Below the pieces are notes generated by a model. It had not been told where the DNA came from and ran no database searches. It was given only the letters and a program-made list of their open reading frames with translations. The position numbers were made by a program, and so were the translations under genes. DNA of 56,342 nucleotides, the filler included, from Basidiobolus ranarum (taxonomy: Eukaryota), in assembly GCA_040143965.1 (NCBI GenBank). It is 3 parts of 3 records of this genome, joined end to end, with 100 filler letters (N's around TTAATTAATTAA, not from the genome) between each part and the next. Parts side by side here need not be neighbours in the genome. Positions count along the whole stretch, not along the records: positions 18,851 to 37,558 come from JASJQH010000269.1; 2 more parts are not named here. One strand, given 5' to 3'. Within the stretch, counting starts at the first letter, position 1, and each line of letters opens with the position of its first letter. Shown piece after piece: positions 4,008-53,763 of this stretch.

Positions 4008-4633
4008 ATGGTAAGGGAAAATTTACGAATTTTATTTTAGCGATTATTATGTACGATCTTCACCAGAGTGAAGGATGGATGTGTTGGATCAAAGACATGG
4101 ATAGACCATTTAGATGCGAGTAAATGATTTATGTTGAAATATGTATTTACCTTTCTTTTTGTCCTCAATAGTCTCTCGTTGTTCCCGACAAGAACCAATT
4201 CCAACACATTATCCGTCTTCTCAATACCAATATTGAGGGTAGAACCAAGGTCGTCTTCGCCTTGACTGCTATCAAGGGTGTTGGTAGACGTTACTCTACC
4301 ATGGTCTGCAAGAAGGCCGATATCGATCTTACCAAGAGAGCTGGTGAACTTACCAACGAAGAATTGGAACGTATCGTCACCATTATCCAAAACCCTCTCC
4401 AATACAAGATTCCCAAATGGTTCCTCAACAGACAAAAGGATATTGTCGATGGTAAATACACTCAAGTCTTGGCTAACGGTCTTGATAACAAGTTCCGTGA
4501 AGATTTGGAACGTATGAAGAAGATCCGCGCCCATCGTGGTCTTCGTCACTACTGGGGTCTCCGTGTTCGTGGTCAACACACCAAGACTACCGGCAGAAGA
4601 GGAAGAACTGTTGGTGTCTCCAAGAAGAAATAA
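4008..4633 (+). CDS. RPS18: 40S ribosomal protein S18 (uS13); ATG-only first coding exon
   Basis: ATG 4008-4010, intron 4011-4171, then [20 protein letters not shown]…[24 protein letters not shown]; strong ribosomal-protein codon bias. Confidence 0.98.
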
Positions 4634-6699: not shown

Positions 6700-7649
6700 T
6701 CAGAATAGTTTCTTGGGACTAGGTTGACCGCACATCAAAACTTCATAAACAATACCACCGAAGATGGCTCCGAAAATAGGACCGAAAATTGGAATCCAGA
6801 AGTAGTGATTGGAAGCAGTGAATACTTCAGTACCATAACCAGCAGCCCAGGTGAAAAGACGAGGTCCGAAGTCACGAGCAGGGTTGATGGCGTATCCGGT
6901 CAAGAAACCGGTACACATACCAATGGCAACAACTAAAAGACCAACGAAGATAGGGTTGGCGGGTGCGTGAATTGAATTGCGCTTATCACCACAACCAAGA
7001 AGAGCAATCATCAATAGGGCAGTACCAACGAATTCTGACCAAAATGCAGTACCGGTAGTGAGGAAAGCTTGAGGATAGGTGGCATAGAAGCCAGCAGTTC
7101 CCTGAGGACCAGAAACTTGGCGAACACCTCCATCAAAGATATCGATCTCTTGGAACCACATGGAGTGGACAACAGCAGCTCCGCAGAAAGCACCCAGAAC
7201 TTGAGTGAAAATATATCCAGGGACTTTTTTCCAAGGGAATCCTCTCAATAAAGCTAAGGTAAGTGTTACAGCGGGATTTAAATGAGCACCCTTTAAGATT
7301 AGAAATTCAAAAATTAGTATAATCTCTACAGTAAAGCGTATCTACTTGAACTTACCGAGACACCACCATTGGAATAGATAGCAGCAGTCAAACCCAATCC
7401 CCAACCCAAGTTAACACTCAAGTAACTACCAGCAGAGCCACCCGGATTAAGGAAAACTTGATGAACCACAGAGTTTCCGAAGATCAAAAGGATCATTGTG
7501 CTAAGGAATTCGCCAAAATATTCACGATATTCGTAGCGAAAGTTTCCGAAGAAATTACTAAGTACTTTTTGCAATGGTGTAAGAGAAGGTTGCTCTTCCT
7601 GAGAGTATGAATCTCCCAAGTCAAGTGTGGTAGGATCTTCAAGGCCCAT
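6700..7649 (-). CDS. Aquaglyceroporin (MIP family, GlpF/Fps1-like); 2 exons
   Basis: Intron 7291-7355 joins …NGGVS|GAHLNPAVT…; second motif GYAINPARDFGPR (NPARD is the glyceroporin signature). Confidence 0.95.
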
Positions 7650-8768
7650 GACAGATGATTAGATAGTGTAGAAAAAGAAAAGAATATGGAATGTAAGAGC
7701 GCGTTGATCTGATTTATACTAATCTAGGTAGCACCAAAATGGAAAACACATCAATTTATCACTGGCGGTATCAGGTTAAGCCAAAAATAGAGCCAGACAA
7801 TAGAGTCCAATCACGACCGATTACAGTTGCAACAAAAGAAATTCTCTCAATATGCCCAAACATCTCCACCAGTCTTAAAATCAATGATACTCAAGACCTG
7901 GACACATATATGGTGGGAATTAATGGCTAGTTTAAAAGAATGCGCCTATTTTAGAAAATATACGCCGTGATAATTGTTTCAATTTCTTGAATAAATTTCC
8001 AACCGAACTTGATGTCGGACGGGAAAATGATTTTCATGCGATTGCTCCCAATTTGTGGTAATACAACTGTGTGGTAATGGTAATAGTATGAAGTTCACAT
8101 TGCTGCACCTTGACTGAAAGGGTACAGCACAAATTCCCACACTTTGTTGATTTCACGTGAGTGGCTTTCGTCTTTTAATCCAACTGTTTCGGTACTTTTT
8201 CTCCACTCCAGCACGGAAACACCATCCTCCTCACTTTCCAAATGGTAATATCCGAAAACCATGAGTTCCACTAGATGAAACATTCTGATCATGTCTCCCC
8301 ACAAAACCCATCCCCTTTTGTATAGACTGAGTAAGCTTCATCATTTGACCATATAGACCACCAATCAAATCCGCCAATATCCCAAATCTTGATTGAGTAA
8401 CATTCCCAATCCAATGGTATTCAATCCAATTCAACACCATCGCCCATTCGATCAACATAGATTTATTATACAAGCTAACACATTTATTAGATCGGGTTTT
8501 GGATAGAAATTTTAAGCTGAAACTTGCACTAAATACAAGCTGAGGTAGCCAAGTCCAGACTATATATATTCGGATAACACGGCAAGCATGGCCCCATATA
8601 CTGTCAATGAATGAATCAGCTAACTAAGCTGCTGAATATATCCAGGTTTTCACTGAACCAATTGCCCAAGTGCTACCCTGTGAATTGATAAAGTGAATAT
8701 CAGGAAAATGCCTAAAAGGGTTGTGTGAATCTGGGGTTGAAGGTTTCAGATATCTACTTACTTGGGGT

Positions 8769-12555: not shown

Positions 12556-12939
12556 ATTTGAGGTATCAGTATTGAGAAGAGGAGTTTATATGCATACTTC
12601 AACTGTGGGTACAGAATATCCTTTTCCATTAGTCACCATAGATCATTCATATCTGGCTGCAGCTACTAGATGTGTCATGGTGATCGCTTGTTGTATGGGT
12701 GATTTAGGGAGACAACAGGAATTTAGCAAGCTTACCATGGATTGATAATCTTAAGAACAAGAAATCAATGACTAATTATTACTAGCAATCCTCACTAGAG
12801 CAATAATCCATCATGCTCACGAATATATCACAAATGAAATACTATTCTACAAAGTAAAGCTCTGCTTGTATTAACAATGGTATCAAGAATGCTTTTTAAT
12901 AGAGAAATGCATATCTCAGCTTTTGCACATAAGGTAATA

Positions 12940-14206
12940 TCAATTGCTAGCCAAGAATTCTTTCATATCAAATTCAAGCTCGCCTTCTTTCTTGGTCACC
13001 ACTCCTTTTTCGGTGGCAATGGCAGTAATCAAACTGGCCGGGGTAACATCAAACGAAGGGTTCCATATATTGATTCCTTTGGCGGCCACTTGAACAGTTT
13101 TGGCAACCACTCCAACTTCGTCGGGTAAAATACCACGAACTAGGCTGACCTCTTGAGGTGGACGTTGTTCAATAGGAATCTCGGCACCACTGGCAATCTT
13201 AAGATCCACTGAAGTGGAAGGTGCCGCTACAATAAATAGAGCACCATGATGCTTAGCAGTAATGGCTAGTTGGTATGTGCCTATTTTGTTAGCGGTGTCA
13301 CCGTTTGCGGCAACTCGATCAGCACCAACAATGATGGCTGAAACTTTTTCTTGTCTCAAGAGTGCAGATGCCATAGAGTCACAAACGAGGGTAGCTGGGA
13401 TATTGTCATAAACCAGTTCATACGCAGTTAATCTTGATCCTTGGTTATAAGGCCGTGTTTCGGTACAGTAAGCGTGCTCAAGGCGCCCGGTATTATGAAG
13501 AGAACGAATAATTCCCAAAGCTGTTCCGTAACCAGCAGTAGCGAGAGAGCTATACAGAGAAACGTACAAAAGTCAATATAGTTTCAATTTTGCCAAAAGT
13601 TATCTTGGTAAAAATACTCTACCCAGTATTACAATGAGTTAAAACCTTGAGAGGGATAGATTCGGATATATTGTTCAAAATATATTCTGCACCATATTTT
13701 CCAATATTTTTGTTGTCTTGCACGTCATCGGTAAGCATTTGTTCGGCGGCATTAACGTAAGCGCTAATAACGTCTTGGGAAGAAACGGTTTGGGCAGCAG
13801 CTGCCTGTGTCGTTCTCCAAAGTTTCTCGGCAGCATCAAAAAGATTAACAGCAGTTGGGCGAGATGTCTTAAGATATTGTAGAGATTCCTCGATGAAAGC
13901 CAAAGTTGGAACAGTACCACTCAAAGTATCCCCTTTATTGAACAACTCGATGCAAAGTGAAAGTGCTGCTACAATAGCTATAGCAGGTGCTCCACGGACC
14001 TTTCCATATAAACAAGAAAATTAAGATATGAAAACTCACAAGTTAATCTCGAACCAAAAGAGTACCTGCATGGTTTTGATTGCAGAATGTCCCTCTTTGA
14101 TCCCATTAATCGGAATATAGACAGTTTCATGAGGAAGTAAAAGCTGATCTAAAACCAAAAGTTCACCTCGCTTGTAACGAATTGCTTCAAGAGTTGGAGC
14201 GGACAT
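12940..14206 (-). CDS. MRI1: Methylthioribose-1-phosphate isomerase; 3 exons
   Basis: Introns 14000-14065 and 13550-13622; motifs [69 protein letters not shown]. Confidence 0.96.
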
Positions 14207-18750: not shown

Positions 18751-18850
18751 NNNNNNNNNNNNNNNNNNNNNNNNNNNNNNNNNNNNNNNNNNNNTTAATT
18801 AATTAANNNNNNNNNNNNNNNNNNNNNNNNNNNNNNNNNNNNNNNNNNNN
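18751..18850. other. Artificial contig spacer (44 N + TTAATTAATTAA + 44 N)
   Basis: Six-frame stop linker flanked by equal N runs, 100 bp in total; identical to the second spacer. Confidence 0.97.
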
Positions 18851-31709: not shown

Positions 31710-34700
31710 ATGAGCGAGACATTGAAAGACGTGCCGGAGCTATTTGAGAACGAACTCAAAGAGTCATTAAATGCTAGAACTGATGGACTTGGTTGTTATT
31801 CACCTTGAGCTAGAATCCTTCCATATCTTCATTTTACTTATGATTGCTTTACATTCTAACCAGCTTCGTACAAAGAGCTTGGTCCTCCAGATCTTTGTCA
31901 CTTGACAAAAGCTTCCGGGAAACAAGGAGTTAAAGAGGTATGCACTTTGAAACAACTCGAAAAATCTAGATAGAAACTGTTTTTGGAATTCGACGTGTTT
32001 CTAGTCTCGCCATCACCATCTTTCACTAGCTTTTATTCTCTCTTATGCATATACTCACCAATTCAAAATGTTAGATTGGCTCCTACCATCATATAATGGG
32101 CATAGATGCTTCCTCTTCTGCAAGTCTTGCCGCTTACATTAACTCTTTGACTTATTCGATGGTATAGTAACTTTTGGATAGTAAAGTAGCTGTAAAATGA
32201 ACAAGTATTGATCACCTCCATCAGGATGACCCTCACGGTTGGTTTAGCAAAGGACCAGCTTGGAAGATTAGTTCAGGAGTTTATTGGTACTTCATAGTCC
32301 TATCAGTATTACAACGATATATCTAGCTAACTCGTGTGAACCCCCAATACTAGTTGCTACAATGCATTTTCTCGAGTCGATGTACGCGTTGAAGTGAACA
32401 TCCCTGGCGGTGTATCCAGTTACGTAGTCAATCAAAAAGGAGAAAAGTAAGCAAGAGAAACCTCCAAATCCGAAGCCTTATGTAGACATCCGATACTAAA
32501 AACAAATCCCAAATTTAATTAGATTAGAAGCAAAAGCTGAGATTTGGCACGAAACACACATCTCATCAATCCTTCGCTCCTTCCTCTATTCAGATGATGA
32601 GAACTACCGTTTGTCGGGATTAAGAAAAATCGACCCGATATCCAACCTCAATGCAGAGAAACGCTTCTTGGAATCAGCCGAACAAGTGTTTTTCAAGGGT
32701 AAGTAACGTCATAAAGACCTACTCATAATAGTTTACTAACGGGTAACATGAATGTAACATAGGATGGCAACTTGGAAGTGACCCCATGATTCAAGTAGCC
32801 ACTAATGTCCATAATCATCTTATCGATGGATTGATGAAGTATTTCAGCGAGAGCTCTCGATTCGACATCGCAGCCAGCTTCTTTGAAAAACATATCCTTT
32901 TTTCTTTTTCACTTTCTTTACTATTCCAAGTGACAATTGTGCTTATAGCTCTTTAACTCCTCACACTGTATACAAAGGATCCTGAAGTTACTGCTCTTCT
33001 TGCCCGATCATACTTTGGAATGGGTAAACAATAGAATGGCAAAACTTACGCAAAGCCATGCATCCATATTTAATGAACATATATTTTGTAGACGAGGAAA
33101 TCAAAGGCGTTAAAGCATTGCATCACGCTTTAAAGAAGAATAGCATGAGTTATCCCTTACTTCATGTTCAAGCAGATTTCTTGTTAAAAAAGGTAAGCAA
33201 CTTCATTTCAGAATACTGAGAAAATATTTACTAATGGGAATGCGCTAGAAAAAAATGGATATCGCATTACAACTAGCTAAGCAAGCAGTCAATAGTGCTC
33301 CCTCAGAGTTCCTCACCTGGGCCAAACTCACCGAAATCTATATGGAGATGGAAGATTTCAAATCTGTAAGGCTTGGCTTTTGATGAACCCACTCCTACGT
33401 TTTCTCAATCTAACCTTTCCTGCATTAGGCCCTCTTAACTTTGAACTCCTGTCCGATGTTCACGTACACCGATCGTGACTTCCCTCGTATGCCACCGCCT
33501 TTGAAGGTTCATTTACCTGCCAAATTTGAGGGAAACTACGGTCTTGGTCCTGAAGAAGAAAACGAAAAAGAATTAGAAGTAATAGGTTTAAGCTAGTGCG
33601 AGTTAGTTAATATATTCTTACGTGGCAATTGATTATATGCATAGGTTCAATCTGCTCTTGCCAGACTCCCCGCTCCTTCATTAAGAGGCACATTTGCCAT
33701 CGCTTACAATATTCTCACCTTATTGGTTTCTAAGGTTGGATGGGATGATCTTTTAAAATGCAGATCTCATGTATTCGTAATGGAAGAAGAGTATCGTCTT
33801 CAAAAGGCTCAAGAAGAACAAGTCTACACATCCAGTGATACCGGTGCCAATGAAGACGATGACATCCCACTTGGTGTAAAAAAGGAACAAGCCGTCTCAG
33901 CTACAGTGGATTCTGTAGAAGAGAAAGAGGAAGACGATCAGCCAACCATGGTGAATGAGGCAGTAGAGCTTGATGAGAAACTTGATGAACAAGCTTTAGA
34001 TACAGTTCCTGAAGTTGCACCTACCAACATCAAACCAGCTGATTTAGTAAGCGAAGAGATTCATACCCCAAATGGTGAACCAGAAGAAGGAAAGAATGAT
34101 AGTGCAGATGACGACTCACTTGTTGGTAAAGTAGAGAGTGTCAACCTCGACGATACACCTAAGCAGGAACTCGAAAATTTGAATCAAGATAAAGAGAATG
34201 AAGAGGAGGTTGAAACCTCTCATTCAGATGTTGTTTCCGATGGTGAAAAAGAGAACGTTGAGACTACTCTCACTGAGGGTACCGAGCTTAATGATACAAT
34301 AAATGGAACCGATACTGAGCATGTAGAGAATATCCCGCCCTCCATGTCTGCTCGTAAGGATAGCGATCAATCTGAGAAGGTACAAATCATTAACCCTTTT
34401 TCCCCCTGGCTATTTACTAACTATTTACATAGACTGGGCAGAGTAGAAGAGACTTTATTACCACCTTTAGTAATAAGAGACTTTGTGAAAGGTAATATAA
34501 AACACCCATTTCCAAGTATGTTCGCTCACTAAAAATCGATGGACTGTGAATCCTCTAGATGGCTGGACAATTTATTTATGGTTCTATATGAGGTATGTAT
34601 ATATAGCTATTCAGTTGGTAAGCAATTTACGAATACTTTTGTTAGGATTTGAGAGCATATACCGCCTGGAGAGCTGAAGCTTCACATGTGAAATCCCAAC

Positions 34701-35232
34701 ACTTGTCCTACTCTAAAACCGGCGCCGAGTGGGAGGCACTTGGTGATTTAGGGCTCAGACTCCACCATAAGGTTTGTTTGGAAATTGTGAAGCATTTTCA
34801 CTCTCTCCATCCACTAACTTTGCTATAGGAAGAGGCTAAGGAAGCTTACCAACGATGCTTGCATAACAAATTCTCCGCCAAGGCCTGGTTCAAACTAATG
34901 AGAATATATGCGGATGAAGATAACCTTCAACATGCACTTTCAGCAATAGTCCAACTCTCCGTACATAATGATAGATGGTATAATGAAGTAGTGGTAAGTG
35001 AATTGTTTGTTCTTGTGATGTTACCATCGATACTGAATTATTCCTCGATTGGACACGTGCATAGTATCCCTCTCCTGTTGCCGATGTCTTGAATCATCTC
35101 ATCAAGACCCATGGCCTATCGAAAGTCCAAAATGTGTTGATTTCTATGAATCTTCCAGCACCAGTCTACAAGATAGTAACCCGGTACTTTACATACGCAG
35201 AACTATTCAAAATAGATGGATCAGAGTGGTAG
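31710..35232 (+). CDS. ChAPs family exomer subunit (Chs5-Arf1-binding, Bch1/Bud7-like); about 17 exons
   Basis: Spliced: ELGPPDLCHLTK, GIDASSSASLAAYI, CYNAFSRVDVRVEVNIPGGV, APSEFLTW, ALLTLNSCPMF, VGWDDLLKCRSHVFVMEEEY, KRLCERWLDNLFMVLYEDLR; 15 GT-AG introns plus one AT-AC. Confidence 0.93.
32892..32966 (+). other. U12-type (minor spliceosome) AT-AC intron in the ChAPs gene
   Basis: 5' ATATCCTTT, branch TCTTTAAC at about 32950-32957, 3' CAC; removal restores FFEK-L-YTKDPEV in frame; no GT-AG alternative fits. Confidence 0.92.
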
Positions 35233-37558: not shown

Positions 37559-37658
37559 NNNNNNNNNNNNNNNNNNNNNNNNNNNNNNNNNNNNNNNNNN
37601 NNTTAATTAATTAANNNNNNNNNNNNNNNNNNNNNNNNNNNNNNNNNNNNNNNNNNNN
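37559..37658. other. Artificial contig spacer (44 N + TTAATTAATTAA + 44 N)
   Basis: Same 100-bp construct as 18751-18850. Confidence 0.97.
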
Positions 37659-38501: not shown

Positions 38502-39707
38502 CTAATTTTTGGGCCACCAGTCGGGGATTACTGGATGTACATTTAGAGGATTACCATTACTGCCCTCTGTTCGTAGTTTGATGTCTGGTTTTTGTAATAA
38601 TTCCAAGCGAACCAACGCTAATCCGATATTATGTATACCGCCACAGAACTTGGCATTATTTCTAGCGTTCTTCGTGCCATCAACAATAATGTCCTGGGCA
38701 GGCGGAGGCAAATCCAGCTCCACACTTCGATCAACCTTAATCTGAGTAGGTGTTGACGATATTACCTCTGCGTCAGAGGTAATTTGAACAGGAAGAATGC
38801 GTTTACGAGTGACTCCAGTATGGTAGGTACGAATAGTAAGCTCTTGACCCACATAGCAGCCCTTGCGAAAATCAATTCCATTCATATAATCGAAATTGGA
38901 TTCAAGCGGTAAAGATGTATTGGTGAAGAAATCAGGCCCTTCAGGTACTCCGTGAAGGATTCGACGAATCGTATATTCACGTGAATTAAGCTCATTGAAA
39001 TCCGCGGGTAGTGATAGTACTTTGTCCGAGGGTAGAATAATGCGATTTCCTAGCCCTGGATATCTAGTGTCTTTGCATCTAATGTCTCCAATCTCTTTAA
39101 GAATCATACTTCCTTGAGGGATATTTACCGGCTTTCCGGTCTCGATAAAGTTAGCTTTGGGTCCCCATAGGTTCCAAACATTATACTCTTCGCTGACATC
39201 CTGTATCTTTACTCTAGAGCGAAGAATGTATTTTTTTATGTGCTTCAGCAAATCTTTAGTACTAGCAGAAGAGCACTCAATAAGGAATACAGGCGATGAA
39301 AAATTTAGTCCCTGATTCTTGGGGTATATAAAGGCGTCATAAAGTACACGACCCTGAATATAGTTGTTAGAGGTTAAACGTACAAATATAATTCCAAATA
39401 AAGCGGTTAAATAACTTACATTAGGAGCTAAAAAAGCAGTGAAAAACCCATCACCCCCCGTAGCAATGTGAGGCATATGATTAGTGATGATTCCTTGAAG
39501 GAATTTGACGGTATCGTCACCGTGAATTTGAAGGATACCTCTGTCCGGGACTTTTAAAAAATTATCACCCTCATGCAAAGGATCCTTCTCATGTGTAGGG
39601 GATAAAGGAGATATAGTGGTAAAGGTACGATTGTTTGAGCGTTTTAAAAGCGCTGTTGAGACGAGGGCCCTCAAAGGGGTCGATATCTTTCCCAGGCTAA
39701 TATTCAT
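38502..39707 (-). CDS. IBA57: Mitochondrial Fe-S assembly factor Iba57/Caf17 (YgfZ family); 66-nt in-frame intron
   Basis: KGCYVGQE signature, FLQGIITN, LPLESNFDYMNGIDF; intron 39354-39419 joins FLAPN|GRVLYD. Confidence 0.95.
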   Translation of the reverse strand: MNISLGKISTPLRALVSTALLKRSNNRTFTTISPLSPTHEKDPLHEGDNFLKVPDRGILQIHGDDTVKFLQGIITNHMPHIATGGDGFFTAFLAPNVSYLTALFGIIFVRLTSNNYIQGRVLYDAFIYPKNQGLNFSSPVFLIECSSASTKDLLKHIKKYILRSRVKIQDVSEEYNVWNLWGPKANFIETGKPVNIPQGSMILKEIGDIRCKDTRYPGLGNRIILPSDKVLSLPADFNELNSREYTIRRILHGVPEGPDFFTNTSLPLESNFDYMNGIDFRKGCYVGQELTIRTYHTGVTRKRILPVQITSDAEVISSTPTQIKVDRSVELDLPPPAQDIIVDGTKNARNNAKFCGGIHNIGLALVRLELLQKPDIKLRTEGSNGNPLNVHPVIPDWWPKN

Positions 39708-40094
39708 ATTAGAGGTGTACTGCTTTCAAAATAGAGTTCTGATGGAAAGCTTTGATATTCAAATATTCCACCTTGTCAGATATAACGCAAAATCAAAATC
39801 GCGTCTGGCTACACTAGATGCTCCGATTCAGCCAATGGACCTCCCATTGGTAAGGTTTCCAGATATATTTTAGACGATCACCGATTGGATCAGTGGATGA
39901 TTACTCGAGAAAAATATGCAGTAAAATTCCGAAATCCTCAGGATTCACCAATACAGGATAAAATCCATTTGGTGATACCATGATGGGAAATATTTCAGTA
40001 TAAATTGTGCAGTTTTGATAATCTTTGATAAATTTTAATTGCGAGTTTCATTTACATTCATGCCAAATTGCATGTGAATAATCATTGTAGCAGC

Positions 40095-40766
40095 TTAAGC
40101 GCGAGCGTTGGTATAACGTTCTGCAACATTCTTCCAGTTGACGATCTTCCAAATTTCAGTCAAGTAGTCGGGACGAACATTCTTATATTGGAGATAGTAA
40201 GCATGCTCCCAAACGTCGACACCAAGAAGGGGAACTAAATCAGTGAGGACATCCTGGTTTGGAGTAGTTTGAATCTGAAGAGATTGTTTGGCCTTGTTGT
40301 AGCCCAACCAACCCCAGCCAGAGCCCTGTACGGCAGCGGTTTGGGTGTTGAACTGCTTAATAAAGTTCTCCAAAGACCCAAAATCACGCTTGATAGCATC
40401 CAACAGTTCGCCCTTAGGAGGCTCGCCGCCACCTTCCTTGATAGGGGCCAAATTGGTCCAGAAAATGCTGTGGTTAACGTGGCCACCACCGTTGAACTTC
40501 AATGCGGATTGTAAGGAAATCTGGGTAGTAAGATCGTTTTTGGAAATGGCTTCCGCATTTTTTTCTTCAGCAATATTCAGGTTGTTAACGTAAGTTTGAT
40601 GATGTTTGCTATGGTGTAAACGCATGATCTCCGTGTTGACGACAGGTTCCAAGGCATCGTAATCGTAGGGGAGATCAGGAAGAGAATGCTTGCAACGAAC
40701 CACCACCATGGAAGGGGAGGCGAAATTTACTTTCTTGACAACAGATTTGGTAATAGTACGCAACAT
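40095..40766 (-). CDS. SOD2: Mitochondrial Mn superoxide dismutase, intronless
   Basis: [47 protein letters not shown]-terminal presequence. Confidence 0.98.
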
Positions 40767-40876
40767 GAGTAATGAGGGAAGGATAGTAACTCCTGGGCCA
40801 TGAGTGCTTGTGCCATTGTTAAATACCCTACATCCAAAGTGGGGTTACAACAAGGTTTCGGGGCTTTCACTCAAAA

Positions 40877-41644: not shown

Positions 41645-42383
41645 ATGGTTAGTATTTTAGACGTAGTCTCAACGGTTAAATGTCCTCAAACTATCTGAGA
41701 GATGATACTTTCTAAATGAATTGTTGAAGAATGTATATTAAAATATCGAGTTCCAGAGATGGATGGATGCAAGTTGAAAAATAGAAACAATTACGAATTT
41801 CAAAATTAACGACGAATTTAACTTGCAGGGTATTGACATTAAGAAACATCACGTTAAGAAGGGTAACAAAACCGAGCCCCGTAGTCAAGATGTCTACCTT
41901 AGATTATTGGTGAAATTGTATAGATTCCTTGCTCGTCGTACCGACGCCAAGTTCAACAAAGTCATTCTTAAGCGTCTTTTTATGTCTCGCATCAACAGAC
42001 CCCCTCTTTCTATTTCTCGTTTGGCTCGTTATGTCAAGGGTAAGGAGGGCAAGATTGCCGTCGTCGTTGGTACTGTTACCGATGATGAGCGTCTTTTGGA
42101 GACTCCCAAACTCACCATTTGCGCTCTTCGTGTGACTAAGACTGCTCGTGCCAGAATTTTGAAATCAGGTGGTGAGGTTATCACCTTTGATCAGTTGGCT
42201 CTTCGTGCTCCCACCGGCGCTAATACTGTTCTTTTGAGAGGTCCTAAGAACTCTCGTGAAGCAGTCAAGCACTTTGGTGCTGCTGGTGTTCCCAACGGCC
42301 ATGCCAAGCCCTATGTGCGCTCCAAGGGACGCAAATTCGAACGCGCCAGAGGTCGCCGTGCCAGTCGTGGTTACAAGAACTAA
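41645..42383 (+). CDS. RPL18: 60S ribosomal protein L18 (eL18); ATG-only first coding exon
   Basis: ATG 41645, intron 41648-41828, then [11 protein letters not shown]…[12 protein letters not shown]…[14 protein letters not shown]. Confidence 0.98.
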
Positions 42384-48002: not shown

Positions 48003-49428
48003 TTACTCCAGAAGACTAACATCTACTCCGTTGGCGACATCCCAAACCAGAATCTTTTGGTCTTGGCCAACACTAAAAAGATCCCATTAGAATCAGACAA
48101 TATAATCAATCAAAGTAAAATAACATACCTAATAATTTTCGTTAAACTGAATTGGACATCAAAGACCCAGCTGGAGTGACCGTTCCTCAAATCAAGAATA
48201 CACTTTCCTGTTTGGATGTCCCAAACCTTTACTGTTTGATCGTAAGACCCAGATACAAGATGCTTTCCGGAGAGGTGGAGTGTGCGAACAAGATCCCGAT
48301 GACCAGTCAAAGTTCTTAGGCATCGTCCAGTTTGTGCATCCCACACTTTTATAGTATAGTCATTAGAACCAGACACAACTCTTTTACCATCAAATTGAAC
48401 GCAAGCTAGTCCTCGTGTATGTCCTACAAATTCGCGAATGCATTCGCCTGTATTTATATCCCACATTTTCACTATTGAATCTCCTGAAGCGGAAACCAGA
48501 ATATTATCTTGGAGTTGGATTGCATTGACTGGACCTCGATGGCCAAGCAAAACTTTTATTAACTCCCCGTCGTGTATGCTCCATACACGGATAGTTCCAT
48601 CTTTTGAGCAGCTTACAATATGATCTTTATCAAAGCAAACATCGAGAACGCCTGCGCTGTGACCTCGAATGCGAAATTTTGAAGTTAGTGTTTTCATGTC
48701 CCATACGATAATAGTCGTGTCGCTAGAGCCGGTAACCATAATTTCATCGTTGTAATCTAAGCATAATACCGAGCGGCAATGACCCGTTAAGCTCATCATA
48801 CATTTGCCGGTGTCAATATCCCAAAACTTTACTGAACGATCTCTAGAGCCAGTAACAATTTTTTTGCCATCGAATTTTAAGCAATAAACGCTGTCTGAAT
48901 GACCAGCAATAAGTCGCTTATCAATCATCCCAGCTTTCCAGCGTTTTTCAATCGTAGAACGCTGTTGATAGAGGTATTTCCAGTCTAGACGTGGATTATT
49001 GGGCGGAATCCGTACGTACCATTGCTGATCTAGATATAATTGTTTCCATATTTCCGAATCGCTAGCTATTTGGTGCCAATACTTCGAGACTAACATCAAG
49101 CGAACAAGCAGCATAAAATCTGCATATGTCAGAATGTGCAAACAGATCTCGAAAGGTAGCGAAGATATTAGATCTAAAGTATTGATAAAGAATAAGTACA
49201 TTTTACTGTAAGAGTTAAATCCAAAAAATTACCTATTCCTGTTAGCTGTAGCTCTTTACCACTGTCGTTTGCTTTACGTAGGTTAGAAAGACTATCGCTT
49301 GAAGAAGAGTAGGAAGAGAGAGATTTTGAACCTCTCGACTGGCTTCGAGGGCTAAAAGTGAATACTCGTTTTGTCAGACTTTTCCATAACTTCGTTTTAC
49401 TCATAAGCTTCAAAGTAGAAGTGCTCAT
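48003..49428 (-). CDS. F-box/WD40 protein (beta-TrCP/FWD-1-like SCF substrate receptor); 3 exons
   Basis: Introns 49174-49232 and 48073-48128; F-box DLISSLPFEICLHILTY…VSKYW; seven WD40 repeats beginning GHSDSVYCLKFD. Confidence 0.92.
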
Positions 49429-52144
49429 TGTACAAAGACACTTAGCCGGTTAAGGGGTTACGATAAGGTAAGAAAAAGGCTTCTAACGAGTGTGAATTAC
49501 TATCTAGACTACAGCTGAAGTCAAAATAGTCACAAGGAATATTGACAGTAACAGAAAATGATAAATTAAATACTGCCGCTTGGGGAGTGAGCAATTGATA
49601 TAGTAAGAACCCGGAGAGAAGAAGGGAATGCACCTGGGCTACTCCAACTCAAATAAGACCTTTGTAAAGTGATTGGATAAAATGTAAGTGGCTAGGAGTC
49701 CCAATTTATGAAGCCAATCCACAAATTGTCCAATAATAGAAATGCGAATGATTGGCGGAATCAATTCAGTATAAGTTTTAGGGAAGTTTTGAGAAGTTTT
49801 ACTTAGGATATCCTGATACAATGGAAAGTATATATATGGATAATTTATTAACTAGCATATAAAGAGTGTACCAATTTATTTGCATTTAAGACCGTATTTT
49901 CGGCCCACAATGATTTAAGACATCATTAAATTGCATTAAGGTTTCAATGTTACTGTCTACTTAATTCAATCTGTCGTCATGTACGCAAAACCGTTTCTAT
50001 TCAAAATACCGTTTCTCTTCTAGTCTATTTCATGCTGGAACGATGACAGCTTGCGAATTTAAAACATCCTATGAGAGTGAACGACGAACTTGTTTCACGA
50101 CAAGACACTACATCAGCCGCAACATAAGCATTGTTTCACTATCCATAACATTTAATCTTCTCTGGATCTTTCGTAACCAGTTTTGTAATTACTTCTACAT
50201 CGATTTGGGGCAGCGTGGAATCAGCTGAAGCACATATGCGAATTTAATTTAGCTAATGGACGGCCATTCATTAAGCGTTCCCTCCAAATTCATTTACTTT
50301 AGAGACCGTAGCTATCCATTTCCCTATATTAAATTAAGTAGCATAGTGAGTTAATTAAATAGGATGAACAGTAGGCTTGGAGATCCATTTCTAGCAAACA
50401 ACGTATTATTATTTCCAGTGTAGTAGCTGTAGCAAATAGTATCATTTGCAACCAGCTTTTCTCAGCATGTATTGAACGGGTAGATAATAGGGGCGATTTC
50501 TTGACATTACTGTGTTAATCCGGTGATGGGCTCATTAGCATTGTCCAACTTGAGAAATCCTACCCCTATCGGGCCGTGGTACCACCACCAACTAGTAATC
50601 ACATACATCCGCAACAGCATGGCCGTCTTGAGATATTTCTTGGATAGCAAAGAACACCCCTTCAACACTTGAATTGGGGATCTCGTCAAGTGGGGTTTCA
50701 GTACGATTCTCAACTAGCCGAAGATGGGCAATACCCGCGTTGTTATCCAGGATATCCTCTTTCCGTACTTTCCAAACTCAAGAAACTCTTTGACCGTATT
50801 TACTGCCAATAGTTTCTTCCTGCAGTATCAATAGCATAGATTACATTATGTCTTTCGAGAGTTTTTAAAATGGGCAGTCATGGGACTATCTCGGGACATC
50901 AATCATAGATGTCCACCAATATTAGTGCATCATCGTATTGTGATTCGCTAAGATGGATACATGCTATCCTTGATGACGTATCAATAAGATAATAAAGATG
51001 TACAGAAATGCTTGCTTAGCTCAGCCATAAACCAACACGGAGTATATGCAAGCCAGTAACATATCTAATCTCTCCCAAGATTCATGGTTTAAGTTTTTCC
51101 GTCGCACTGGTAAGTACTCTGTGCTGTCCATATTGTGGAGATTCGTATTCAACTTGACATATTAGTAGTCTTTAAGTGCCTTCTATTCTATGTATTTGCG
51201 GTATGATACTATTATCATAGGCTTTGCAGATAATTGATGCCTACAAGATGCTGATCTACCCATTAAAACTAATTCTGAATAGCAAACATGTGCAGGTAGA
51301 CTACTTGATTAAATGATTGATTGAAAAGCCGTCAGTGAGTTTTACTGATAACATTTAGCACGAACTTTAGATGTTCCAGAATAAGGAAGACTGATGATTC
51401 CAGATTACCTGAATGTGTGATTGTCCATACGACACCAACACTTCAGTTCAGCAAAGAAGCTTGTATAGGATCAATACGCTCTTCAAGCGTCCAGTCTTGA
51501 TTTATGGCAGTTTAGAAACCAGCTAAAACTTTAATCCATACTACGATTGGTATCAAAATCGCATCTGTATACTCGAATACTTGATACACACAAACATGGT
51601 ATTTCTATCTGTCGGTTGCTTCACTTGTAAGTCCTTTGAATTGATCTAGTGGATACAAAATAGTGATGAAAATCAAGCGGATATTTAAATAATCAGCGAG
51701 CTAGTAAAGTCCAGCTGCACTCCTGCATTCCAGCATCGAGGTAGTTTTCAAATTCAATCATAGGCAGGGATCTGTCATTCAATCTAGATGCCGTTGCCTT
51801 CGGTGGTCAAGATACATTCAGATCGTGCTAAATCTCGTGTAAAGAGCATTCTTCAATCTAATGATTCATGAACGTGATTGTAGACATACTGTATTAAGAA
51901 TATTGCTTACTAGTTAGCGACCTTAATGCCTCCTGTATTTGTGCGTGTAGTAAGCGCTATACTGTGTGGTATGGTCAACAGCATTTATGAATTCTGAGAT
52001 ATTGAAAATAGTTATAAAAGTGGCGACTTTGCGGAAATAATTCAATTCAGTTATCCTTGTTGCCTTCTCACTTTCTCATAATAGAATCTTTAGAAGAGCT
52101 GTACACTCCTATTTCACATACCTTTCTCAATAAGTGAATGCAAA

Positions 52145-53763
52145 ATGAGATTCTTAATTTCGAAAAATGCTTATTTGATACTCTTTTCATTATTAAGCAT
52201 CCCAACGATTGCCACTGCTCTTTTTAATGATACCGAAATTAACACTAAAGCCGCCACACCTAGTATAGTAGAAATCGACACTGAATCCAGTACTATGCCA
52301 CGCCATCTGGTCAAATTCAAGAATCTCCCAGGGAAGAGCTGGGTCAAAACGTTCGGTGGAGAGGTTCAATCCTTATCCAACAAATTCCACTTTATGGTTG
52401 GTAATTTTTCCAATGGCGAGCTCAGTGTTATACAGAAGGATCCCTTGGTCGATTATGTGGAGCAAGAAATGACAGTTAAAACCTTCCTGGTAGAGAATAG
52501 TCCACCTAGCTGGGTTAGTAATTTAAACAATACCAGACATCCTTTGATTATTGATTTGAGCTGATTCATGCTTTAAAAGGGATTAGATCGATTAGACCAA
52601 CGTCAGCTTCCATTGGATAAGAAATATAATTACATAGACTCGGGTGGCGCCGGTGTAGATGTATATGTAATTGATACGTATGACATATATTGTAATTTAT
52701 TTTTGCAACGCAACAGTGGCTAATGGTGCTTTACACTTACTAGTGGTATTTATATAGAACATGAAGACTTTGAAGGTCGAGCCCATTGGGGTGCTACAGT
52801 AGTAAATGGCACATCTGTTGACGGTAACGGACATGGAACATTTGTAGCAGGAATTATAGGCGGTAAGCAATATGGCGTCGCTAAGAAGGCAAATATACAT
52901 GCGGTTAAAGTAAGTTTTCTCATCATCTTCTCTGTTGTTCGAGGTCGGCCTTTTATGCCTTTATCAGGTACTTGACTCTAACGGAGGAGGCAGCACTAGC
53001 TCATTGATCAAGGGATTGCAGTACGTTTATGAAGAGCACCAAAAGAAAGAGAACAAACGAACAGTCATAAAGTATGGTACAATACAATAACCCCACATAG
53101 TCCTTATACTTATTTCTTCGCAATTCAGTATGTCCTTAGGAAGTGACTATAGTAGACTGGTGAATGACATTGTTGGTGAGGTCATTCAGGCTGGGATCGT
53201 AGTAGTAGTAAGTAGCTATCTGAAGAGATTCACGCCCGTGTCAAATATTAAATCTTAAAAACATGTAGGCTGCTGCTGGTAACGGCAATGAGGCGGGCAT
53301 AGGGATTGATGCATGTGGAGTATCACCAGCTTCAGCACGTGGAGTGATTACTGCCGGAGCAACACGTAGTGATGACCAGATTGCCATTTTCTCGAACTTT
53401 GGCCGTTGTGTTACACTGTTTGCACCTGGACAACAAGTTATTTCTGATTTTATTGGTTCCAATATAGCTAACAGTAGCCTCTCAGGAACCTCCTTCTCTT
53501 CACCATACACTGCCGGCGTGGCTGCTTTAATTTTGGGCAACTCGGATGAGGTTCTAAGTCCTGCAGAGGTTCAACACCGGCTTATTAGCTTGGCTACAAA
53601 AAAGATAGTGAAAGGTTTGCCTTTCGGCTCTCCTGACCTACTATTATACTCACAAGTTCAAGAGTATAGATCAAGTTCCAATCGCTCGGTTATTCCATCT
53701 CTTATGGCACAACTCATCGTCACATTGGTATCGCTTATTCTAATAACAGAATTTCTCCAGTAG
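52145..53763 (+). CDS. Subtilisin-like S8 (proteinase K-type) protease with I9 propeptide and hydrophobic C-terminal tail; 6 exons
   Basis: Signal peptide; VDYVEQE; SWGLDRLDQ; VYVIDTG (Asp), GHGTFVAG (His), [13 protein letters not shown] (Ser); tail [20 protein letters not shown]. Confidence 0.93.

Follow-up and report, generated by a model that had tools for sequence, protein, structure and literature searches.

A putative ancestral U12-type AT-AC intron in an exomer cargo-adaptor gene of Basidiobolus ranarum and the minor spliceosome encoded by its genome

U12-type (minor) introns were reported from the fungi Rhizopus and Phycomyces in 2010 (PMC2846911), and the accessible sections of two later surveys extend the picture: Rhizophagus irregularis was found to have 205 minor introns and Basidiobolus meristosporus 249, that is, 0.554%, the highest fungal density then found (Larue and Roy 2023, PMC10639083), while a second count for B. 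meristosporus arrived at 237 and at a set of small nuclear RNAs (snRNAs) in which U12 and U4atac are putative (Olthof et al. 2024, PMC11347168). Here we describe intron 7 of a ChAP (exomer cargo-adaptor) gene of Basidiobolus ranarum, located in a stretch of 56,342 nt of assembly GCA_040143965.1 (the window, to which unprefixed positions refer; features lie on the plus strand unless stated otherwise). At a probability of about 0.92 we read it as an ancestral U12-type AT-AC intron of the fungal ChAP gene, the removal of which would be constitutive and effected by the minor spliceosome of B. ranarum itself. B. meristosporus, the sister species, offers the closest comparison; genus, intron class and the snRNA set with its putative or sub-threshold U12 and U4atac (Olthof et al., Table S7) are shared, and the published passages available from both surveys name neither B. 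ranarum nor a ChAP gene. The supplement of Larue and Roy, as far as it is accessible, makes no mention of ChAPs, Bud7 or exomer, and the per-intron databases may well list the orthologous intron; our literature search found no paper on introns or the spliceosome of B. ranarum. The observation is borne out and of a rather common kind, as Basidiobolus already holds the published fungal record for minor introns: it adds one more to a genus with about 240 published, dated before the split of Basidiobolus and Glomeromycota, in a protein family that appears to lack a counterpart in the usual human-centred comparisons of minor introns.

The gene (31710–35232) was modelled with 17 exons, all of them open, and encodes a protein of 804 amino acids (aa). 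Pfam ChAPs (PF09295) is matched by 8 of the 11 exons scanned, yeast Bch1 is its best match among solved structures (E 1e-69, compared to 2e-28 for Chs6), and the gene for the partner protein Chs5 is present in the genome (CHS5_N, 64.1 bits, on G000:C7016); these three features assign the protein to the exomer ChAPs. They are also what it shares with the pre-duplication fungal ChAP of the exomer (Ramirez-Macias et al. 2018, PMC6057913) and with yeast Bch1/Bud7, from which it differs in that there are two Basidiobolus-specific paralogues; it is not Chs6-like. The top match, P0001 ("bud site selection protein [Basidiobolus ranarum]", 801 aa), is identical at 801 of 804 columns, the junction of exons 7 and 8 included. 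The single difference is an acceptor of intron 12 placed 9 nt downstream (34433–34441), which leaves P0001 three residues shorter; either or both of these acceptors may be used.

Fifteen of the 16 introns are GT-AG, and intron 7 (32892–32966, 75 nt, phase 1) is AT-AC and the only one of U12 type, in agreement with the preliminary description of this DNA. Its 5′ end reads ATATCCTTTTTT and its 3′ end CAC. The U12-type donor is ATATCCTTTTT (5′ splice site at 32892–32902), the consensus of such sites being RTATCCTT, and the branch motif TCTTTAAC at 32950–32957 ends 9 nt from the 3′ end of the intron, A32956 (10 nt from that end) being the putative branch point. Exon 7 (32763–32891) closes with the first nucleotide of codon 235 (Leu) and exon 8 (32967–33023) comprises 57 nt; removal of 32892–32966 joins them to FFEK-LYTKDPEV, the same reading as in P0001. 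The ChAPs profile is consistent with this, as exon 7 covers its positions 153–194 and exon 9 begins at 215, and the gap of 20 positions in between corresponds to the residues which the AT-AC model supplies. Motif inspection, gene model and P0001 therefore bear out the segment, its donor, branch motif and CAC end, and the restored protein, all as first described. The claim that the reading frame breaks after FFEK needs to be rephrased: upon retention of intron 7, 21 unrelated codons are followed by TAA at 32954–32956, which gives a product of 255 aa instead of 804, but there is no frame shift because 75 nt amount to 25 codons. As both exon 7 and intron 7 terminate in AC, the junction can slide leftward by up to 2 nt with identical mRNA; AT-AC ends are obtained solely at 32892–32966.

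Both signals are complementary to the snRNAs of this genome. Intron positions +4 to +11 pair with nucleotides 1–8 of U11 at all eight positions (seven Watson-Crick, one G-U), and the branch region (32948–32959, which contains the in-frame TAA) pairs with nucleotides 15–24 of U12 at nine of ten (eight Watson-Crick, one G-U) around a bulged A32956. Taken singly, the donor motif is not rare: RTATCCTTT occurs four times in the window, compared to a mean of 1.97 in shuffled sequence, and at least four times in 12 of 100 shuffles. All three elements together (donor, branch site, AC), in contrast, were found once in the window, at intron 7, and in none of 100 shuffles. The three further RTATCCTTT matches, at 12616 (+), 54805 (+) and 4443 (−), are not accompanied by a branch site and AC that fit, and their number is within chance. 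Donor, a TCCTTAAC-like branch site near the acceptor, and AT-AC ends that restore the protein place intron 7 in the U12-type class.

In the proposed course of splicing, U11 and U12 would recognise donor and branch site jointly, U4atac/U6atac.U5 would then enter, A32956 would attack the donor, and exon 7 would be ligated to exon 8 at the AC (32965–32966); transcripts left unspliced would stop at codon 256 and probably be degraded. The order of these events follows established splicing chemistry (reviewed in PMC8199999), and it is from the donor, the branch site, the AC, the restored protein, the complementarity to U11 and U12 and the pairing of U4atac with U6atac (see below) that we infer use of the intron in vivo.

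A second ChAP gene of this genome, on G000:C7056, carries an AT-AC intron of 66 nt at the identical codon, and the two paralogues share all 16 intron positions. In a tree the four Basidiobolus ChAP proteins form one clade (support 100/100), which makes the duplication a genus-level event; the tree does not resolve which paralogues of B. ranarum and B. meristosporus are orthologues. Beyond the genus, a protein-based scan of metagenomes was evaluated for the best 80 of 277 loci, 76 of which cover the site of intron 7 and four do not; by their best stored protein most are Dikarya-like, and some are unbroken, possibly transcripts, and as such uninformative on introns. One of the 76, L055, has an AT-AC intron of 85 nt at the same codon and in the same phase. 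L055 is Glomeromycota-like (88% identity with a protein from Funneliformis, 85% with two from Rhizophagus, one of them P0016 of R. irregularis), and its ten internal and two bordering introns match codons and phases of introns 3–14 of the window exactly. The remaining 75 loci have no intron at this site, and no recognisable genomic locus from Mucorales, Mortierellaceae or other Zoopagomycota was present among the best 80 of 277; L100 and L116 had been flagged as intron-bearing and were rejected, as their DNA continues as coding sequence. Occurrence of the intron position in orthologues, which the preliminary description had raised, is thereby confirmed for the paralogue and for the Glomeromycota-like L055, and not for the other 75 covering loci, which are mostly Dikarya-like. 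Judged from these two lineages, intron 7 probably predates the split of Basidiobolus and Glomeromycota; it would have been present in their common ancestor and lost in Dikarya, and both Basidiobolus paralogues would have kept it together with all 15 ordinary introns.

It had also been suggested that intron 7 could be a rate-limiting switch on ChAP and exomer output and hence on the delivery of chitin synthase. A lone U12 intron with an in-frame stop, kept in both paralogues of a genome that encodes Chs5, would suit such a role; in the available text of a review, bottleneck and molecular-switch models are given from animal cells (PMC8199999), and vesicle-mediated transport is 2.57-fold enriched among the minor-intron genes of Rhizophagus in the part of Larue and Roy accessible to us (PMC10639083). 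The conservation of the intron does not favour this proposal: all 11 U2 introns covered by L055 are conserved just as exactly as the U12 intron, which therefore does not stand out from its neighbours and requires no special selection to persist. Beyond the donor and branch motifs the intron bodies have little in common, and 75 of the 76 covering loci, mostly Dikarya-like, do without an intron at the site. Further, the accessible portion of Larue and Roy (PMC10639083) records no rise in minor splicing in proliferating Rhizophagus cells, and, according to that of Ramirez-Macias et al. (PMC6057913), the exomer's role in chitin synthesis is recent, arose within Saccharomyces and is tied to Chs6, while the protein described here is nearer to Bch1. 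Argued from analogy, a switch would be an unlikely addition to constitutive removal of intron 7, the persistence of which would rather stem from a conservative structure of the whole gene than from a dedicated function.

That the genome encodes a minor spliceosome is supported by four snRNAs and two protein-family matches. Rfam family searches for U11, U12, U4atac and U6atac recovered one full-length gene of each, two of them under the cut-off, and no match in 14 control genomes searched alongside. U11 scored 84.6 bits (Rfam cut-off 39) and U6atac 66.3 bits (cut-off 33). U4atac and U6atac are predicted to form a duplex of −30.1 kcal/mol with both stems, which 1 of 500 shuffles reached (mean −17.2, sd 3.0); U11, taken as a control in the same test, was indistinguishable from shuffles. 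Upstream of each of the four minor snRNA genes (L001–L004), at −63 to −68, lies an RTCCCAYA element, followed closer to the start by a TATA-like stretch; the background is four such elements in 91 kb (0.044 per kb). We take the element to resemble the upstream sequence element of plants. As for U11/U12 proteins, the two families sought, Ubiquitin_4 and PDCD7, were both found. Ubiquitin_4 gave a match of 41.3 bits, the exon of which also matches, if weakly (E 0.011), the U11/U12 25 kDa (SNRNP25-type) protein in the PDB; the second match was to PDCD7, presumably equivalent to U11-59K. Genome-wide, a strict U12 consensus was matched by 73 AT-AC and 57 GT-AG candidates, compared to 17 and 6 in reversed controls, these counts including a few duplicates with alternative ends. 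Four of the AT-AC matches resemble repeat copies (on C3750, C4193, C11937 and C11991). The preliminary description had spoken of a working U11/U12/U4atac/U6atac system; the components are there, and their activity in B. ranarum appears probable from sequence.

Several observations count against our interpretation. U12 (49.4 bits) and U4atac (46.6 bits) both remain under the Rfam gathering score of 53, the PDCD7 match is barely at cut-off (27 bits) and has no match in the PDB, and helix I of U12/U6atac, too short for a test of this kind, was equalled or surpassed by 245 of 500 shuffles. The branch site is one base off the commonest form, TCTTTAAC being present in 6 and TCCTTAAC in 15 of 27 sampled candidates. 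Conservation at the DNA level outside Basidiobolus is seen in a single contig, L055. Lastly, the U6atac found reads GUCGA instead of the AAGGA of the Rfam consensus, and this box pairs with the donor at +4/+5 and is mismatched at +6/+7.

Such points might be taken to mean that the major spliceosome removes the segment, either as a U2-type AT-AC intron or by a cryptic GT-AG pair, or that a hybrid spliceosome does so, as has been raised for fungi without a high-confidence U4atac in the available text of Olthof et al. (PMC11347168). In-frame GT/GC-AG alternatives do exist, the nearest being a cryptic GT-AG pair of 48 nt at 32930–32977, and the poor fit of the U6atac box to the donor would be accounted for. 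However, the pair 32930–32977 would replace four conserved residues by 13 unrelated ones and is disfavoured by the alignment of homologues. Across the junction (positions 225–245), 88 of 90 homologues have residues, and 76 of these 88 have exactly 21; every enumerated in-frame alternative inserts or deletes residues and therefore fits worse with the 76 gap-free homologues. Among 11 AC or AG acceptors tried with the donor of intron 7, solely 32965–32966 gives the homologous protein; those at 32957 and 32987 keep the frame and were rejected, as they add three or remove seven residues. In addition, the donor matches U11 and the branch site U12; U4atac, for its part, forms both stems with U6atac in a specific manner, and its gene carries the upstream element common to all four. 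Removal by a major or hybrid spliceosome is, on balance, quite improbable, still less to be expected than the switch.

With the one U6atac found, intron 7 would lack the canonical pairing of its donor with an AAGGA box; this does not exclude it from the U12 class, since the same is published for other organisms with a minor spliceosome in the accessible part of Lopez et al. (2008, PMC2396436). There, a "CC variant" of U6atac, [GU]CCGA, is described from Trichoplax, cnidarians, amoebae, moss and oomycetes and termed hard to explain; the 31 rows of the alignment, as available, comprise 20 with AAGGA (including all five fungi), ten of CC type, one with AUGGA and none with GUCGA. Like the CC variant, the B. 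ranarum box is not AAGGA and pairs poorly with canonical U12 donors, and the region downstream of it also resembles the CC-variant rows; being one base from GCCGA, it behaves in a CC-like manner without being a literal member. The gene (L003:1501–1634; G000:C89:21836–21969, +) sits amid spliced, eukaryotic-looking open reading frames (ORFs), has a T run at its end and carries the RTCCCAYA element. One copy was found both by the family search, in which 45 of 2894 candidates were scored, and by a DNA search of the assembly, which has 13,754 contigs. The literature searches, which cover few subscription papers, returned no report of a GUCGA form, with Lopez et al. (2008) as the sole relevant paper. 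Whether this gene is the sole working copy and of an unreported form is, in our estimate, an even question, and the odds seem equally balanced that minor splicing in Basidiobolus proceeds on a U6atac/donor core of two base pairs. The donors have not followed the box: some 130 U12-like introns of this genome retain the canonical donor despite GUCGA, and donors complementary to GUCGA are not enriched genome-wide (46 matches compared to 123 controls). If GUCGA is the sole copy, it bears on how necessary pairing of U6atac with the donor is to minor splicing, and Basidiobolus would be a culturable fungus in which the puzzle posed by the CC variant in 2008 becomes testable, with the ancient ChAP intron as reporter. 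Among the controls for compensated donors there are about ten copies of a repeat of 75–80 nt (C391, C786, C1367, C7179, C7354, C7520, C7548, C7565 and others). A 10-nt copy of the box region (L003:1511–1520) lies at L003:1414–1423, about 90 nt upstream of the gene, and may be due to either chance or a small duplication.

That the segment stays in the transcript, the gene being a pseudogene or encoding a truncated protein of 255 aa while the paralogue supplies the function, is highly improbable: a paralogue exists, but it has the same intron, so that the argument would disable both copies, all 17 exons are open, and residues 135–340, which span the junction, are 90% identical to a B. meristosporus protein.

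It had been anticipated that gene prediction would go wrong at an AT-AC intron. In Basidiobolus it did not: the public model of this gene, P0001, already uses intron 7, and the other three Basidiobolus proteins are likewise correct there. Overall, the spliced junction is present in P0001–P0004, P0009, P0016 and P0021. The expectation does hold for Glomeromycota. In a set of 90 proteins retrieved with a query region away from the junction, with groups assigned from source names, gaps at the junction occur in 14 of 17 named Glomeromycota models (several of them from one genus and non-independent), compared to none in 12 Mucorales, 41 Dikarya and four Basidiobolus proteins. Across all 193 proteins, this junction is broken in 15 of 18 Glomeromycota models, whereas three U2 junctions taken as controls are broken in 5, 0 and 2 of the 18. 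No weight as evidence for loss was given to the lesion counts in Mortierellaceae, 0 of 25, or in 27 of 39 proteins from Mucorales/Umbelopsis, since these derive from a junction-ranked search (best 120 of 783), which is biased against broken models. P0016 of R. irregularis, to which L055 with its same-codon AT-AC intron is 85% identical, differs from most other Glomeromycota models in that it carries the spliced junction.

Some of the lesions can be read in terms of the intron. P0005 (Glomeromycota) continues with YILF after FEK, and the DNA of L055 reads FEKYIL through its donor; YILF is probably read-through of a phase-1 U12 donor, as the LNS-containing extension of P0018 (Glomeromycota) would be of a branch site. 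An AT-AC intron here would explain the breakage at one codon in most ChAP models of arbuscular mycorrhizal fungi and shows how such annotation may be repaired. Among the Mucorales, P0171 from Spinellus fusiger is the sole model that is damaged at the junction, by an inserted SLT; this may represent read-through of a U12 branch site, in which case S. fusiger would have kept the intron. P0003 ("variant 2"), which belongs to the paralogue, reads into the last intron (L010:3504–3574) and stops early, while the DNA has a normal final exon; the early stop hints that transcripts were used in the annotation.

The ChAP gene is on the middle one (G000:C269, JASJQH010000269.1) of the three pieces that make up the window, which are separated by runs of N at 18751–18850 and 37559–37658; neighbours across these runs are unlinked. 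Other ORFs in the window were assigned by resemblance: those at 4172–4633 and 41778–42383 presumably encode ribosomal proteins S18 and L18, respectively, and that at 6700–7658 we take to be an aquaglyceroporin, that at 12940–14020 a methylthioribose-1-phosphate isomerase, that at 38502–39725 a protein like Iba57/YgfZ, and that at 40095–40844 a Mn superoxide dismutase. Towards the end of the window, an F-box/WD40 protein (48110–49228) and a subtilisin-like protease (52094–53763) are presumably encoded.

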